Shown here: one piece after another, positions 1 to 8,311 of the stretch
How the letters are laid out: every line of letters begins with the position of its first letter
Position numbering within the stretch: the stretch's first letter is position 1
Source of the DNA: Escherichia coli
Lineage (GTDB): Bacteria > Pseudomonadota > Gammaproteobacteria > Enterobacterales > Enterobacteriaceae
Direction: 5' to 3' (one strand)
Length of the DNA: 64,000 nucleotides
Assembly (NCBI RefSeq): GCF_016026235.1
Contig: NZ_CP065613.1
Position numbers and translations under genes: made by a program
Notes under the pieces: model-generated
What the model was told of the DNA's origin: nothing
Databases searched by the model: none
The model's input: the letters and a program-made list of their open reading frames with translations, nothing else

Positions 1-645
1 GCCAGAGCAAAAAATACTAAAGCTTTCCGTTTCACAAGTCAGGTTAATGACGCTATTAATCCTCCAAAACAACCAAGACAGCCACGAATTAGCGGAAACA
101 GAGCAATCACAGCAGCTTACTCAGCGAATATGAGCAAGCTAAAAGGCTTTGACCCTATTTTGCAGAAATACATCAAATCTCAATTTTACGGGCTATCTGC
201 TAAAGCTGGGGCAATGGATAATTCAAAATTCAATGAGAAGTTAGCTCAGTTAAATGCTTCAGTCAGAGAAGCAATTGCTAAAGCCAGAGGTCATACATCC
301 ACCAGCATTAATGGTGACAGAGCAGCTAGCAGCCTTGATAACCTGTCTTCAGCAGCAGTTAGAGCAGCAGGTGCATTTATCAGCTTTCAGGCTGTACTAT
401 CCGCTTATCAGCGAGTACTGGAAGTTGGTTTACAGCGTGCAAGTGCTGAACGTTCAATTGATTTCGTATTCGGTGACCAAAGTACACAGGTTAAAAAGTT
501 CATTCAGGATTTAACTCAAATTACTGGTATGGACACAACCGAAACACAAGCGCAATTTGCTTCATTTGGTGCATGAAGTGGCACACTGAATTTGGCCACC
601 TGAACAGAGGTGATATGCTCACCTCAGAACAACACAGGTGCTCCA

Positions 646-1814
<1,169 letters not shown>

Positions 1815-3088
1815 CCACTTCAGCAAGTGCAACGACTACGATGGGTCTTGAAGGGTCAGAAGAGCTATTTAAAAACCTTACAGGTTATGCTCGTTTAATG
1901 GGGCGTTCAGATGAGCAGATTCAAAGAGCATTAACCGCAGTGTCACAGATGGCCTCTAAGGGTCAGGTGATGGCTGAGGAGTTGAAGGGGCAATTATCTG
2001 AAGCTTTACCGGGTGCTACTCAGGCATTTGCAAAGGCTTTAGGTCTGACTGAAAAACAGCTTTTCGATAAGATGAAAAATGGTGATGTTAAAGCCTCTGA
2101 TGCACTTCCTAAGTTTGCTAAAGAACTTGGTGCACAGATTAATTCAAGAGGTGGCTGGAAAGCTATTCAGGATTCTACGCAGACGATGTTAGGAAACTTA
2201 AAGAATACTTGGAACAACTCACTAACGGATATTTTCAGAGGTTCTGAAAATGGTCTGCAAGATTTCACAAGAAGCCTAACAACGCTTTTAAACAGTTTAG
2301 GTGGAAGTGGTAAAAGTCTTGGTGAATCTCTTGGTAGCTTGATGAGCGATATGTCGCATGGTGTCGATAGTCTGACTGATATCAGCTACAGGGTGAGAGC
2401 GTTCTTTGATGAGGTGACATTAGCTTACCGTGGTTTAACCGATGAGCAAAAGAAAGTAGTTGATGCTTTAGGTTCTGGCTTGATTAATAGTTTAAAAGTC
2501 TTGGCTGGTGTTATTGCTGTAAATAAAGTTGTTGGTGTAACCAGAAGTATTTACGGGCTTATGACTGCTATCACAAGATTAGGTCAGGTCGCTGATACAA
2601 CAGCGGATAACGTGAATAGAAAGAATGGGAAACCATCAAGATTGAATCTTGGGAATATGCTATTAGCTGGTAGCGCTCTCTATGCAGGTTATGAAAGATT
2701 AGCCTCTACACCTGAACGAATGGAAGCACAAGCTAAATTACCAGAGCTGGCTAAAGAGTCTGGACTTAAACCCGCTTTCACTATGGATGATGTTAAAGGG
2801 TGGTTTAATAGTGCTGCTATGAATCTTGCTAACTTCCAGCATCCAGAATTAAACAACATTAAGCAAGATTCAGCATTAACGAGTGCAGATATCCAAAGCC
2901 TGAGAGATGAAATCTCCGCTTTGAGCAAACGTATTCAGGAGCCTGTGAAAGTTTCACTTGGTGGTGAAGTTGCCATTAAACCAGATGAAACCAGCTTTAT
3001 GACCTTTAGCAGTAATATCTACGACCAATATGCAGAAGCTACGCTATTAAGTTCATCATTCCCAGAAGATGATTAATAATAGTCGAAT

Positions 3089-3143
3089 GCTACGTGAATA
3101 AAGCAAAGTTAATACCCACACCAAAAGTTATTTTTCACGTAGC
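3089..3143. repeat. 10-bp perfect inverted repeat GCTACGTGAA / TTCACGTAGC with a 35-bp spacer
   Basis: Read directly in the intergenic region between the tape-measure gene and the next phage gene. Confidence 0.5.
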
Positions 3144-4111
3144 TCACGCTTAACAGAGAAAATACTTATATATCAAAGGAGAATTTAATGATTTACACTA
3201 ATCAGCTTCGTTACACTGGTAAAGATGGCGTTTACTTCCACTTAAGAGATAATGTAGATGCCTTCTTAACCTTATCAGCAACTGAAAACATGGAATTTGA
3301 TAGCCCTATGATGGTTACCACTCAAAATATGCAATCAGGGCAAACCGTCACAGATAATGTTCAAAGAGCACCCAGAACAATTACTATTAGTGGTGTGGTT
3401 GTAGTTGGTGAATCCGGTAGTATCCTTATCTCAAGAGATAATAAGCTGGTAGAAAACTTCATTGACACTCTTGAAAGCTGGCGTGACCAGAAGCAGATTA
3501 TTTCGGTCATCTGTAAAGACGGAATTAAAATTGATGATTCCATTATTACAAGCTTTAAAGCCTCTAAAGATGTTGGTATTTCAAATGGCCTAAGAATCCA
3601 GCTAACTTTTCAGGAAATTAACTTCAAAGCTATTGTGGGTCAAACTGATATTTCGGCTGCAACTGGAAAGACTGCTACCACAAATGATGGTGGTGCTACC
3701 AGTAAAAAGAATACAGGGAACACTACGACAAGTTTAGGTAATGGTATGTTGATGTGTCAGGAGCTATATAATCGCTCTACGAGTGAACTTACTAATGAGC
3801 AACTTCAAGCCCGTATCAATTGTGGTAAAAGTGTCAAAGTTGAGAATGGAAAAAGCACCTTCTCAGATGCCGCTAATGAGCAAGCTTCAAAGGTGCTTAA
3901 TAATGCTGGTACAGGTAGTGCGTATTTTCATGAAAGGAGATCACTCAATAACTTCCATCGAGATCGGGTAATAACATTTGAACAGATCGCTGAATAACAT
4001 CGATGGAGATCACTTTTGACTCATTTTGTTATTCAGTGATCTCCATCAATGTTATTGGAACTTCACAGGTGTGTTGATCTGTATCTTTTGCCATTCCGGT
4101 AAAGGATACCT

Positions 4112-5512
4112 ATGCCAACAGTTCCAATTTCTATGAGAAAACTTAAAGAAATTCTTAGGCTTAAATACGGTGTTGGACTCAGCCATCGACAAATTGGTCG
4201 TAGTCTTGCAATCTCCCCTTCCGTTGTATCCAGATATGCTAATCGGGCGGCTCAACTTGGCATAAAGCAGTGGCCCTTACCTACAGGATGGGATGATACA
4301 AAACTAAAACATGCGTTCCTTCAGACCCAGGTTAAGATGAAGAAGCACTCTCTGCCTGACTGGGCTACAGTACACTGGGAACTGCGTAATAAATGCGTGA
4401 CGCTGCAGCTACTCTGGGAAGAATACTGTGAGCGTAATCCAGGCGGTTTTTACAGCTATAACCATTACTGCCGGATGTACCGTGAATGGCTCAAAACCAC
4501 TTCACCATCAATGCGTCAGGTACATAAAGCTGGCGAAAAACTTTTCGTTGATTACTGTGGACCTACCGTTGGCGTTACCGACCCTGAGACCGGAGAAATA
4601 AGAACTGCTCAGGTCATCGTAGCTGTTCTCGGGGCATCAAGTTACACATGGGCAGAGGCCACCTGGTCTCAGCAGCTTGAAGACTGGGTGATGAGTCATG
4701 TTCGCTGCTTCCAGTGGTTGGGTGGCGTTCCTGAACTTGTTGTTCCGGACAATCTGAAAAGCGCCACATCCAGGGCATGTAAGTATGATCCTGACGTTAA
4801 CCCTACCTACCAGCAGATGCTTGAGCATTATAATGTCGCAGTTTTGCCTGCGCGGCCACGTAAACCGAAAGATAAAGCCAAAGCTGAAGTTGGCGTTCAG
4901 GTTGTTGAACGCTGGATCATGGCCCGAATCAGGCATGAGATCTTCTACAGCCTTGCATCGCTTAATCAGCGCATTCGGGAGTTGCTGGAAAGACTGAATA
5001 ACAAAATAATGCAGAAGTTGGGTTATTCACGTGCAGAACTCTTCATCCAGCTTGATAAACCCGCACTGAAGCCTCTTCCTGAAGCCAGTTACAGTTACAC
5101 CCTGGTGAAGAAAGTCAGAGTTCATGCCGATTACCACGTGGAAATCGACAAACATTACTACTCGGTTCCATGTTCGCTGTTAGGCCAGCAACTGGAAGCA
5201 TGGATCTCCGGAGAACTGGTAAGACTCTTCAATCAGGGGCAGGAGGTTGCTGTGCACCCGCGCAAGCGTACTTATGGCTACAGTACCCGCAACGAGCACA
5301 TGCCTGAAGCTCATCGACAGCATGCCACCTGGACGCCAGAGCGTCTTCTGGAATGGGCGGGGCACATAGGCAGTGAAACTCATAGTTATGTGCTTCATAT
5401 ACTGAACTCTCGTCCACATCCGGAACAAAGCTATCGCTTCTGCCTTGGACTCCTGAACCTTCATAAAAATACAGTAAAGCCAGACTTAATGCAGCATGTG
5501 CAAGAGCTCTGA
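4112..5512 (+). CDS. istA: IS21-family transposase IstA, apparently frameshifted near its 3' end
   Basis: N-terminal helix-turn-helix-like region MRKLKEILRLKYGVGLSHRQIGRSLAISPSVVSRYANRA and a DDE-type body. The ORF stops at 5512, but the -1 frame is open from 5467 to 5652 and ends 12 nt before istB. Confidence 0.8.
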   Translation: MPTVPISMRKLKEILRLKYGVGLSHRQIGRSLAISPSVVSRYANRAAQLGIKQWPLPTGWDDTKLKHAFLQTQVKMKKHSLPDWATVHWELRNKCVTLQLLWEEYCERNPGGFYSYNHYCRMYREWLKTTSPSMRQVHKAGEKLFVDYCGPTVGVTDPETGEIRTAQVIVAVLGASSYTWAEATWSQQLEDWVMSHVRCFQWLGGVPELVVPDNLKSATSRACKYDPDVNPTYQQMLEHYNVAVLPARPRKPKDKAKAEVGVQVVERWIMARIRHEIFYSLASLNQRIRELLERLNNKIMQKLGYSRAELFIQLDKPALKPLPEASYSYTLVKKVRVHADYHVEIDKHYYSVPCSLLGQQLEAWISGELVRLFNQGQEVAVHPRKRTYGYSTRNEHMPEAHRQHATWTPERLLEWAGHIGSETHSYVLHILNSRPHPEQSYRFCLGLLNLHKNTVKPDLMQHVQEL

Positions 5513-5663
5513 AAACAAAGGTATGGCGTCTGTCAGGTATTAAATCGATCCTGGAAAAAGGTCTGGATAAACAACCTGTTCAGGATCCAAAACCAGATCT
5601 GTTATCCACGATGGAACACGAAAACGTACGCGGCAGTGAGTATTACCACTGATACGGGATCCA

Positions 5664-6413
5664 ATGATGAATCATCTTTACGAACAACTGACCGCACTTA
5701 AACTCACCGGCTTCCGTGATGCGCTTAAAAAGCAACTTGCTCAGCCGGGCACATACCAGGAGCTGGGCTTCGAAGAACGCCTGTCATTACTGACAGCAGA
5801 AGAACTAACCTGCCGTGAAAACAGGAAGGCAGAGCGTCTGATCAAACATGCACGGTTCAGACTTAATGCTGAGTTATCAAAGCTGGATTATCGTAACAAT
5901 AGAGGGCTGGACAGGGCCCTCATCCGTTCACTCAGTCAGGGAAACTGGTTAACCCTGAAACAAAATATTTTACTGACCGGGGCCACCGGCAGCGGTAAAA
6001 CGTTCCTGGCATGTGCACTTGGTCATAATGCCTGCCGACAGGGATACAAGGTCTACTATTATCGCCTTAAAGCGCTGATGGAACAGTGCTATCAGGGGCA
6101 TGCTGATGGAAGATACAGCAAACTTTTGACTAGGCTGAATAATAGCGATCTGCTGCTTCTGGATGACTGGGGGCTGGAACCTCTCTCATCAGAACAGCGT
6201 AGCGACCTGCTGGAAATAGTGGATCTGATGTACCAACGAGGCTCAATCATCGTAGTGAGCCAGTTGCCGGTGGAAAACTGGTACAAAATGATCGGAGACT
6301 CCACACATGCGGATGCCATCCTAGATCGACTGGTTCATGGCAGTATCAAGATTGAACTTAAAGGAGAATCAATGCGGAAAATACAATCTCCGTTGACCGA
6401 AGGAGATCAGTGA
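5664..6413 (+). CDS. istB: IS21-family helper ATPase IstB
   Basis: Walker A motif LLTGATGSGKTFLACALG and DnaC-like layout, located immediately after istA. Confidence 0.9.
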   Translation: MMNHLYEQLTALKLTGFRDALKKQLAQPGTYQELGFEERLSLLTAEELTCRENRKAERLIKHARFRLNAELSKLDYRNNRGLDRALIRSLSQGNWLTLKQNILLTGATGSGKTFLACALGHNACRQGYKVYYYRLKALMEQCYQGHADGRYSKLLTRLNNSDLLLLDDWGLEPLSSEQRSDLLEIVDLMYQRGSIIVVSQLPVENWYKMIGDSTHADAILDRLVHGSIKIELKGESMRKIQSPLTEGDQ

Positions 6414-6560
6414 AGGTAATTTAAAAACGGTTCTGTGAAAGTGACACGAACCGATCTCCATCGATGTTACTCACCGATCTCCTTCACGGTAATACGCAGG
6501 TAGTACTTTGAAGAAGTTTAGTGTGAATCCTAACAAGCGATACTGACGATAGAATCTCAA

Positions 6561-8090
6561 CTATATGATAACCTCATCAACATCTATTAAACCCCTCTCA
6601 GTGACTTCAGAAAGCGACTGTATAGCCTCTGTAACGTCCTCTGAGGGGTTTTCTGTTATTGGTAGGTCAATTACCTTACCGTTGTGAAAAGTTACTTTAC
6701 AGCGACGTTTAGCGGCATCTATAACTATTTCTTTGAGTACGCCCTTGATAAGTAGCTGTGTCTCTACCATCCCTTCCTTTGTTGTCCTGTCAATATCTTT
6801 GAGGCTTCCAGTTGTGATGGCCTTTATCCGCTGTGTTTCCTCTTCGATATCATGATTGAGTTTTGATAGCGCATTCTTCATATCACGTAATTTCTCTGTG
6901 ATAATTGTCATGTCATCGAGTTCAATAGCGAGTTCTGCCATTTTTGAGATTTTACGCTGCAAATCTTCACGCTGTAATTTAAGGCTATCAATAGTGTCAG
7001 TATTTTCAGTTTCAAAACGGTCGCATAATGCGAGCATGTAAAGGATAGTTGCATCCGTTTGCTTACGACTGATAGCCTTTGCACTACACCTGTTAGCTGA
7101 ACGATTAGGACATCTGTACATCCCAAAACGTTTTAAGGCATATCCACCAAGAACAATAGTAGCCCCACACTCAGAACATTTGATGATACCCCTGAACAAG
7201 TTGACTGATAGCGGATTACTTGATACAGAAGCCCTACCATATTGCCCTGTGTTCAGTTGCTGTACTCGATAGAATAGTGACTCACTGATTATTGCGGGGT
7301 AGTAACCCTGAACTTCTTCACGTCCAGCAGGTGTGAAACATCCAATCACAGCACGATTTCTGAGTAGTTTCTTTACAGCAGTATCAGACCATCCCTTTTG
7401 TTTAGGTGTGTATTGATTCAATGACAAGTGGCCTTCATCGTTTAAAGTTCTGGTGATAGCCCAAAAGCTTAAACCCTGTAATCTCAGGTCAAATGCTCGT
7501 TTAACAACTTCCACTTTATCGGGGATGATAGTGAATGTTCGACGGTCATCATTCAGCCTTAACCATGCAGGACAACGCCTAGATACCTTGATACCTTCGG
7601 AGATGAGTTCTTTTTTACGGTTCCATGCAGCTTGGACACGCTCAGACTTCCTCAGACTTTCCTCATGCGCCCGCTGCATTATCAGAATGCTTTTAATCAG
7701 GGATAACGGGTCTTTTAAACTTTCTCGTGTGTAATGTTCACCATCGGACAGGGTGACTACATCTACACCAGCCCTTAAGATACGGCGTAATAGCTCAGAA
7801 GCAATATCAATATCCTGACGTGACAGACGGTCTAAACTCTCGATTAGTAGCGTATCACCAGCTTTAACAAGCCCTTTCTCGATAGCGGTTAGAAAGTCAC
7901 CTAGACCACCTTTCAGGTGCTTACCACTAAAAGCACTTTTCCCCAAATCTTTAAAGCTCAAGGATGAATCCAAGTAAAACTCAGGGTTCTTATCAAGCCA
8001 GTCAGTAACCAGCTTAGATTGTCTGCGTACAGAGTCCCCTTTTAGTTGTCGTTCACTTGAAAATCTGATGTAGCTGATTGCCCGTCTCAT
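6561..8090 (-). CDS. Large serine recombinase (phage integrase type)
   Basis: N-terminal resolvase-like catalytic region (AISYIRFSSERQ), a cysteine-rich zinc-ribbon-like segment (CSECGATIV...YRCPNRSANRCS) and a C-terminal extension. ATG at 8088-8090 is preferred over the TTG at 8096 used by the ORF track. Confidence 0.85.
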   Translation of the reverse strand: MRRAISYIRFSSERQLKGDSVRRQSKLVTDWLDKNPEFYLDSSLSFKDLGKSAFSGKHLKGGLGDFLTAIEKGLVKAGDTLLIESLDRLSRQDIDIASELLRRILRAGVDVVTLSDGEHYTRESLKDPLSLIKSILIMQRAHEESLRKSERVQAAWNRKKELISEGIKVSRRCPAWLRLNDDRRTFTIIPDKVEVVKRAFDLRLQGLSFWAITRTLNDEGHLSLNQYTPKQKGWSDTAVKKLLRNRAVIGCFTPAGREEVQGYYPAIISESLFYRVQQLNTGQYGRASVSSNPLSVNLFRGIIKCSECGATIVLGGYALKRFGMYRCPNRSANRCSAKAISRKQTDATILYMLALCDRFETENTDTIDSLKLQREDLQRKISKMAELAIELDDMTIITEKLRDMKNALSKLNHDIEEETQRIKAITTGSLKDIDRTTKEGMVETQLLIKGVLKEIVIDAAKRRCKVTFHNGKVIDLPITENPSEDVTEAIQSLSEVTERGLIDVDEVII

Positions 8091-8094
8091 ATTC

Positions 8095-8130
8095 AATACC
8101 TAAAATGATGTGTTTAGGAACCCATTATAC
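8095..8130. other. Prophage-chromosome junction (attR-type site) within mdtG
   Basis: mdtG-like codons diverge from the recalled K-12 sequence about 8120-8128 and are followed by phage-derived codons MGS and a stop. Inverted repeat CCTAAA-N8-TTTAGG at 8099-8118. Confidence 0.5.
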
Positions 8131-8311
8131 TGAAGACAATACCGGACCACATATTCAGGGCGGAGTGGCCGGTAACGCCAAGCTGCTCAACGTAGAGGGG
8201 TAAGAAGGGCATTACCAGACTGAAGGCGGCACCGGTAAGAAAACAGCCTAGCCAGGCGACGATCAGGTTTCGTTTCCAGTTTATAGGGGTGTCATTTTCA
8301 CAGGGTGACAT
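8114..8311 (-). pseudogene. mdtG: mdtG (yceE) 5' fragment, about 62 native codons, truncated by prophage insertion
   Basis: Translation [62 protein letters not shown] matches the recalled MdtG N-terminus, then ends MGS-stop instead of continuing into the transporter. Confidence 0.85.

Follow-up and report, generated by a model that had tools for sequence, protein, structure and literature searches.

The gene considered here occupies positions 3188-6546 of the window, the 64,000-nucleotide stretch of Escherichia coli contig NZ_CP065613.1 (assembly GCF_016026235.1) that was analysed, and is, with near certainty, a homolog, disrupted by the insertion sequence (IS) ISEc12, of the gene for the tail tube initiator (TI; Dit-like) found in Felix O1-like myophages. 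The TI belongs to the conserved core of a family of integrative elements of Escherichia and Salmonella, not to a prophage; the protein family is already known and structurally solved, and the window gene is a divergent-armed member of it that resides in a chromosomal element. As for the element family itself, our analysis somewhat favors the interpretation that its members are satellites of virulent Felix O1-like phages, similar to the PLE of Vibrio cholerae, which would assemble chimeric tails on helper parts.

The gene as it stands in the window consists of two coding segments separated by the insertion:
3188-3918, plus strand: first part of the TI gene (codons 1-243 plus 2 nucleotides), with Pfam, PHROG and PDB matches, encoding the tube-protein-like ring domain, a T/N/G/S-rich linker and most of the C-terminal arm
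3919-6498, plus strand: ISEc12, IS21 family, 2,580 bp, with istA at 4112-5512 and istB at 5664-6413
6504-6546, plus strand: last part of the TI gene, 13 codons and a stop, ending in ...TLKKFSVNPNKRY, joined in frame

The features of the insert are those of an IS21-family element, namely TG...CA ends (TGCGTA... starting at 3919, ...TACGCA finishing at 6498), ORFs (open reading frames) for an IstA-like protein of 466 aa (amino acids) and an IstB-like protein of 249 aa, a short target duplication (the 5-bp direct repeat GGTAG at 3914-3918 and 6499-6503) and 99.8% identity to the RefSeq copies annotated as ISEc12, IS21 family. In the ORF listing of the window, the gene is represented by an ORF of 269 aa (3188-3997), the final 26 residues of which come from the inserted IS. 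Excision of ISEc12 together with one copy of GGTAG, with 3918 joined to 6504, yields an open frame of 774 nt that encodes 257 aa and a stop, exactly the join and the approximate length that an earlier note on this DNA had proposed; both the N-terminal peptide quoted there and the Thr/Asn/Gly/Ser-rich stretch (residues ~155-187) are present in the product. The coding sequence is thus cut after codon 243 in the window and intact in the relatives: uninterrupted homologs of 255-259 aa, with 84-94% identity, are found in hundreds of E. coli and Salmonella genomes, which confirms the reconstruction. The C-terminal tail SVNPNKRY is kept in all intact homologs.

The earlier note could not assign the protein to a family; profile and structure-sequence searches do so. 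The reconstructed TI matches Pfam PF21821 (Dit_like) over residues 30-146 (E 4.4e-19; 69.3 bits, with a cut-off of 24.2) and PHROG family 3721 (E 6e-133), and its intact homologs are named "phage baseplate protein" in RefSeq. A sequence search of the PDB retrieved chain A of 9NDY, "tube initiator protein (gp018)", with E 2.3e-122, residues 5-256 of the TI aligning to residues 7-262 of 9NDY_A, that is, over the full length, at ~78% identity. The 9NDY structure is the baseplate of Escherichia phage Bas63, a Felixounavirus, in which gp18 is a hexamer with a tube-protein-like fold and serves as adaptor between the threefold hub and the sixfold tail tube; its C-terminal extension of ~100 residues runs through the baseplate beside the spacer protein gp19, and the tape-measure protein (TMP) touches the hub with its last 25 residues (PMC12609058). 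A confident match to a tail-protein family, as obtained here with PF21821 and 9NDY_A, is the outcome that the earlier note had named beforehand as telling against its reading.

In a translated search of 50,697 phage records, the TI was found in 299, nearly all of them Felix O1-like virulent myophages, with a top identity of 78.4%. A record named Campylobacter phage A132 (MG065664.1) and one Staphylococcus record also hold Felix-like sequence. The TI is ~78% identical at the amino acid level to Felix O1 ORF68 (NP_944906) and to 261 phage records, the gene lying there directly 3' of the TMP gene; in Felix O1 it is followed by the spacer, hub, spike and wedge genes. The window has the same initial order, with the TMP gene ending at 3076 and the TI gene starting at 3188, and the placement between the TMP gene and a recombinase gene (6561-8096, minus strand) is as the earlier note described it. 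What lies downstream of the TI gene is this opposite-strand recombinase gene, not a baseplate module, and the intact elements likewise have no baseplate genes. The suggestion in that note of a distal tail protein was therefore right in kind (Dit_like, 9NDY_A) and wrong in the setting that it implied, an ordinary prophage.

The similarity to Felix O1 is unevenly distributed along the protein. Residues 1-150 are 83-97% identical to Felix O1 and the linker (151-187) is 76-95% identical, whereas the last 70 residues, the arm, are only 42-50% identical, with saturated synonymous divergence (dS). Over residues 1-187, dS relative to Felix O1 is 0.38-0.52 in five of the nine element copies, and positions 3217-3760 of the window share 89.5% nucleotide identity with Felix O1-like phages. 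All element copies have one arm type of their own, and none of the 299 matching phage records rises above the 78.4% overall identity. The ring-domain identity of 83-97%, taken together with the Bas63 structure paper, suggests that the element TI would form a hexameric ring between hub and tube; in the phage, this ring sits on the trimeric hub, matches threefold to sixfold symmetry and nucleates the tube around the TMP. Residues 76-89 (window 3413-3454) form a variable loop of the ring domain that shows two states in an alignment of seven sequences: the window and L002 share one version, and L001, L003, L004, L014 and Felix O1 read GYEGSLLLTRQGQL. The element TMP has three parts in common with the phage TMP: the N-terminal ~40 residues, at 56-77% identity, a single central block and, at the C-terminus, the last 12 residues (QEDxLxSSxYPEE). 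Most of the remainder is ~20-30% identical to the Felix O1 TMP, the figure for everything apart from the ends being ~20-37%, and the element TMP is 51-63 residues shorter (679-691 aa compared with 742 aa).

Intact relatives of the window's element interrupt yecE (L001-L003) or mdtG (L004, strain GN4751) in E. coli, adjoin wrbA in Salmonella (L014) or occupy a fourth site close to yciA and ompW (L019, L020). These elements are 11.2-11.9 kb long and are alike in gene order at four or more sites, each of which has its own large serine recombinase. Their left portion is a variable arm that holds a small resolvase, Dam methylase or AP2-type gene and is followed by 1.4-1.8 kb of repeat-rich non-coding DNA and several small genes; the right portion consists of genes for proteins of ~105, 236 and ~69 aa, the TMP (679-726 aa), the TI and the large serine recombinase. 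When all ORFs of L004 were compared with Pfam and PHROG, only the TMP, the TI, an HNH nuclease and recombinases were recognised, and the intact TMP homolog matches Pfam TMP_3 and phrog_4036. In Pfam and PHROG scans of the ORFs of intact relatives, genes for head, terminase, sheath, tube, hub, fibre or lysis functions were absent; neither the modules of a prophage (head, terminase, tail completion, lysis) nor graded remnants of them are present, and both size and order are constant. The TI region is matched in 453 of the 5,426 complete E. coli genomes (~8%), and the TI protein family comprises 1,110 clusters at 90% identity. The element family appears to be undescribed in the searchable literature, outside of which most subscription journals lie and in which we found no description of this element or of a satellite of Felix O1-like phages.

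The pattern of substitution in the TI is that of a gene under strong purifying selection. Between element copies, the ratio of nonsynonymous to synonymous divergence (dN/dS) is ~0.04-0.1 for residues 1-187, the ring part, and ~0.26 for residues 188-257, the arm, a pattern that one would not expect of a decaying remnant.

Furthermore, members of the family excise. A scan of metagenome contigs with a 57-nt motif of the elements (described below) returned 43 contigs, of which two were informative. One of these (L027; 11,233 nt) has a 55-nt terminal overlap, that is, an assembled circle, is circularly permuted and carries intact TMP, TI and recombinase genes, with the recombinase end joined straight to the left end of the element, which constitutes an attP junction. 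The other (L026; 11,473 nt) contains a precise attP, GTGTCTAATAAAAATCA|TCAAGGTCTAAATACAC; its core is AAAATCA, the core that attL and attR of L001 share. These two junctions indicate that excision is precise and that the elements occur as free circles or in tandem form, an observation that pertains to relatives of the window's copy. Three stand-alone contigs of 11.4-11.9 kb (L016, L018, L019) were considered as free forms and rejected, as their short chromosomal flanks identify them as integrated copies with assembly breaks. IMG/VR yielded only three isolate-derived contigs with the element-specific 236-aa protein, hence no virome evidence, and only two large isolate-derived contigs with the 57-nt motif.

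The elements share not only coding but also non-coding sequences with the phages. The DNA packaged by Felix O1-like phages has direct terminal repeats (PMC8303462, PMC11737134); in phage vB_EcoM_I14.1 the repeat measures exactly 581 bp and corresponds to Felix O1 12771-13339. The 57-nt motif, GATATTT-N-TTTGCAAAGGGG-N19-GGGYTACYWAGCAG (also written GATATTT...TTGCAAAGGGG...GGGTACTTAGCAG), is present in one copy each in Felix O1 (13289-13345) and I14.1 (531-587), and the right end of the terminal repeat falls inside it. Of the nine elements whose left part was read, eight also have a single copy of it, a 4-kb derivative (L005) among them, and L018 has no match to the search pattern. The 540 kb of flanking E. 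coli sequence contain no further occurrence of the motif core, and the wider homology around the motif spans ~220 nt, with 64% identity. The elements show no enrichment of TGTTAR, the repeat with which the terminal repeat of the phage is filled. In I14.1 (L012 1-12, 545-575), the left end of the repeat, GCCCCCTTAACA, and TGTTAAGGGGC, located just within the right end, are nearly reverse complements of each other, so that the phage genome ends are bounded by inverted copies of one short sequence. The I14.1 record (L012, L013; PP892526.1) is classified under Tequintavirus (Demerecviridae) and is probably mislabelled, given the 90% identity of its sequence to Felix O1.

A second non-coding piece is common to L004, L014 and 107 Felix-like phages (82% identity over 90 nt; E 4e-16). 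It consists of GATTTTTAACGTGGCTAC..ATCCACCC followed by 10-12 units of (NNACC), and the shared stretch is located as follows:
L004 11759-11851: shared stretch in the mdtG element
L014 2799-2848: shared stretch in the Salmonella element
L022 1275-1319 and 2534-2588: shared stretches in phage tootiki

In the phages, this stretch lies between the ligase gene and the genes upstream of it, with repeat_region as its sole annotation; a role as an origin or as an array that binds a protein or RNA is conceivable.

The remaining features of the window's element, the left part of which falls beyond the window start, are these:
1-573, plus strand: upstream part of the TMP gene, aligning to annotated TMP genes (L001 18262-18825, L003 18256-18826); the window starts ~225 nt inside the gene
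574-1822, plus strand: insert in the TMP gene that we take, from its OrfA sequence, to be IS911 (IS3 family), with terminal inverted repeats TGAAGTGG.../...CCACTTCA, orfA at 610-948 and orfB at 975-1814
1826-3076, plus strand: downstream part of the TMP gene with the stop codon, 91% nucleotide identity to L001 18823-20965
3089-3154, plus strand: inverted-repeat motif GCTACGTGAA-N35-TTCACGTAGCTCACGCTTAA between the TMP and TI genes, conserved in elements
6561-8096, minus strand: large serine recombinase of the element, mdtG-specific type (509-511 aa), 98.7% nucleotide identity to the mdtG element of L004
8097-8125, no strand: right end of the element (attR side), with the junction ...GGAACCCAT|TATACTGAAG from comparison of L004 with the window
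8126-8311, minus strand: 5' fragment of mdtG, the chromosomal gene interrupted by the element (peptide ...WSGIVFSI)

The split mdtG is annotated by RefSeq in L004 and L005. The recombinase has weak NCBIfam matches to the XisF and Ccr recombinases, and its homologs contain the Pfam Resolvase and Recombinase domains. The insert in the TMP gene is flanked by a 3-bp target duplication, GCA, at 571-573 and 1823-1825, and joining 1-573 to 1826-3076 gives an open frame of 607 aa; the C-terminus of this TMP, ...EATLLSSSFPEDD, resembles that of Felix O1, the last 12-13 residues being 62-75% identical. The window's element is a mosaic, with a recombinase of the mdtG type (98.7%) and TMP and TI genes that are ~91% identical to the yecE type and 76-78% identical to the mdtG type. 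This copy is inactive: it cannot work because the TI is cut by ISEc12 after codon 243 and the TMP is split by IS911. Both virion-type genes have thus been knocked out, each by a different IS.

The inverted-repeat motif precedes both the TMP and the TI gene in every element (L001 17955-18020 and 20090-20155; L004 16875-16940 and 19123-19190). It forms a 10-bp stem (z = -3.1), and upstream of the TMP gene it comes after a hairpin resembling an intrinsic terminator. No sigma-70-like promoter was found upstream of the TI gene in window positions 2900-3300, and the motif may be an operator or an unusual promoter.

Several further observations concern other parts of the elements. The derivative L005 (17263-21552; E. 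coli EC21Z-147, in mdtG) has been reduced by deletion to ~4 kb; a 227-aa ORF, the small resolvase, the large recombinase and the 57-nt motif are all that is left in it. In four elements (L016 2781-3566, L018 2511-3470, L019 2650-3591, L002 13646-14636), a protein of 261-319 aa with a weak HTH_36 match replaces the 183-aa first gene and adjoins the repeat-rich non-coding region; it is a possible replication initiator. The RefSeq label 'transposase' on the 236-aa protein (L004 15831-16541 and homologs) has no Pfam, PHROG, NCBIfam or fold support: the AlphaFold model (pLDDT 77) consists of a long helical hairpin and a small alpha/beta domain and matched only coiled-coil folds. The model of the 109-aa protein (pLDDT 85.5) is tandem ribbon-helix-helix-like and resembles TraY and DndE only weakly, at E values of 0.2 or worse. 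When the 69-aa and 109-aa proteins were compared by BLASTP with the tail chaperones of Felix O1, no match resulted, an Rfam scan of the element gave nothing, and NCBIfam gave nothing useful.

With respect to the function of the elements, the closest parallel is PLE, a satellite of Vibrio cholerae with a large serine recombinase, the helper that it parasitizes being the virulent myophage ICP1 (PMC11838301). Every PLE has its own genes for a TMP and a tail chaperone, and some PLEs also have one for a baseplate hub; the TMP enters PLE particles, and the published model is that PLE tails are chimeras on ICP1 parts, with no other satellite reported to encode a TMP (PMC11838301). The elements described here share several properties with such a satellite: they are small integrative elements with a large serine recombinase and defined att sites (attL, attR, attP); they have no full set of virion and lysis genes and so form no particles alone, judging from the ORF scans of L004; and they carry their own diverged versions of helper tail-core genes (TMP, TI arm). 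Under the satellite interpretation, infection by a helper would cause the element to excise and to express its own TMP and TI, which would plug into the helper hub and chaperones through their phage-like parts, i.e., the TI ring, the TMP N-terminus and the last ~12 residues of the TMP, and would seed chimeric tails made of helper tube, sheath, wedge and fibres. With a TMP shorter than that of the phage, such tails should fall short of helper tails by ~8-9 nm, at ~0.15 nm per residue. The element-specific TI arm, the phage counterpart of which lies against gp19, could mark or favor element tails, or else spoil helper baseplates, and the 57-nt site, copied from the right end of the helper terminal repeat, would recruit the helper terminase to cut or package element DNA. 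For the complete version of this proposal, namely that the elements are undescribed satellites constituting an enterobacterial counterpart of the Vibrio PLE, with excision by the large serine recombinase, replacement of TMP and TI and packaging through terminal-repeat mimicry, the TI of the window being a dead copy, we consider the chances to be evenly balanced.

Several points weigh against the satellite interpretation. The element yielded no recognisable capsid-size, small-terminase or replication protein, and modelling of the 236-aa and 109-aa proteins led to no informative match of fold. At 11 kb, the element is about one eighth of the size of the helper genome and has no evident way of being fitted into a head. 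A search of the elements for the left boundary of the phage terminal repeat found no counterpart, and the excised forms come from two metagenome contigs, neither of them from a sample known to be a virome. In several copies, dS relative to Felix O1 exceeds 1, and recent exchange with the phage is therefore not universal. The inverted-repeat motif is absent from Felix O1 even in a search that allowed mismatches; it was accordingly rejected as a helper promoter, and helper-driven expression is thus unproven. Finally, the comparisons presented above show what the protein is, how the element is built and spread, that it is under selection and excises, and which sequences it has in common with the phages; helper dependence, chimeric tails and packaging are what we infer.

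Among the alternatives, the one that best survives, although we regard it as rather unlikely, is that the element is solely a mobile anti-phage island, in which the TMP and TI would act as dominant-negative decoys that abort the tail assembly of Felix O1-like phages, without the element being packaged or transferred. A TI that keeps the ring facing hub and tube and differs in the arm facing the wedge is the design expected of a poison subunit, packaging and capsid genes were not recognised in the element, and interference of mobile elements with tail assembly is established for the Tai systems (PMC11364771) and for Rta of PLE11 (PMC11838301). This explanation, however, does not account for the single-copy mimic of the helper terminal-repeat end, which is kept even in the 4-kb derivative, or for the tightly conserved 11-12 kb size at four sites. 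Moreover, a PADLOC-DB 2.0 search with the element proteins, the library being one without Tai models, returned no match save a marginal one to PDC-S26 (E 0.003). A defensive role is also compatible with a satellite lifestyle, since PLE does both.

It is improbable, in our assessment, that the element is an inert remnant, a cryptic prophage descended from a temperate Felix O1 relative, with a TI that has no present function. Such decay would be in line with the two IS insertions in the window's copy, the existence of the 4-kb deletion derivative and the presence of only two structural genes, but not with the persistence of the same order and size at four or more sites, each with its own recombinase, in two genera, nor with the strong purifying selection on the TI and the existence of precisely excised forms; furthermore, the TI homologs included no full-length temperate Felix-like prophage. 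Hardly any probability attaches to the two possibilities raised in the earlier note, a tail-tip or distal tail gene, taken here as that of an ordinary siphophage prophage, or a non-structural accessory cargo gene beside the integrase: the position after the TMP gene and beside the recombinase is as described and the Pfam match is Dit-like, but the close homologs are found in virulent, contractile-tailed Felix O1-like phages with sheath genes, not in siphophage prophages, the intact relatives are ~11-kb elements without a downstream tail-tip or hub gene and without head, terminase, sheath, tube or fibre genes, and the TI is not cargo because it is a full-length homolog of a virion protein.

Comparison with known systems places the TI and the element more precisely. 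The window TI and Bas63 gp18/Felix O1 ORF68 share full-length identity of ~78%, similar size (257 and 265 aa, respectively), a gene location immediately 3' of the TMP gene, a ring domain resembling the tube protein, a linker rich in T/N/G/S and the tail ...SVNPNK. The element protein differs in that its last ~70 residues are element-specific (42-50%), its gene is preceded by the inverted repeat, whereas the phage gene abuts the TMP gene, and is followed by the recombinase gene instead of gp19 and the hub genes; in addition, the element resides in the chromosome, and the window copy is broken by ISEc12. Siphophage Dit proteins, such as SPP1 gp19.1 and T5 pb9, resemble the TI in that they build a ring where the distal end of the tube meets the tip or hub, and in the Pfam name 'Dit-like'. 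In contrast, the close relatives of the TI belong to contractile tails with a sheath and a wedge baseplate, and even with E values of up to 10 allowed, Pfam gave no match between the TI and siphophage Dit families.

At the level of the element, the likeness to PLE lies in the small size and integrative mode, the large serine recombinase, the virulent contractile-tailed helper candidate, the diverged TMP accompanied by another tail-core protein and the lack of head and terminase genes. The two differ in that the elements inhabit Escherichia and Salmonella, with a helper candidate from another lineage, are 11-12 kb as opposed to ~18 kb long, and have the TI and not a baseplate hub as the second tail protein, with no tail chaperone found; no homology to PLE genes was seen, no search having been aimed at it. 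The Tai systems of PICIs, prophages and P4-like satellites (PMC11364771) are likewise borne by mobile elements and act on the tail assembly of the invading phage, but they are not reported to be homologs of the virion proteins that they block, whereas the element has near-copies of two tail-core proteins. P4, PICIs and cfPICIs are comparable in size (~11-15 kb), occur in E. coli and Salmonella and rely on helper virion genes, P4 carrying the helper cos site; unlike the elements, they use tyrosine integrases and temperate helpers and remodel or build capsids, and none is reported to carry a TMP (PMC11838301).

Taken alone, the TI gene is ordinary, a known tail protein already named in the databases, and its value lies in its setting. 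The system is open to direct testing, given that phages Felix O1 and Bas63 (BASEL collection), sequenced carriers such as E. coli KFu019, GN4751 and AR434 and a solved phage baseplate structure all exist. If the elements are indeed satellites, parasitism of virulent phages by swapping of tail-core proteins would not be peculiar to the PLE of Vibrio cholerae. Felix O1-like phages are widely used in Salmonella typing, biocontrol and therapy, and a common chromosomal element that hijacks or blocks them, if this proves true, would affect both host range and treatment outcome.

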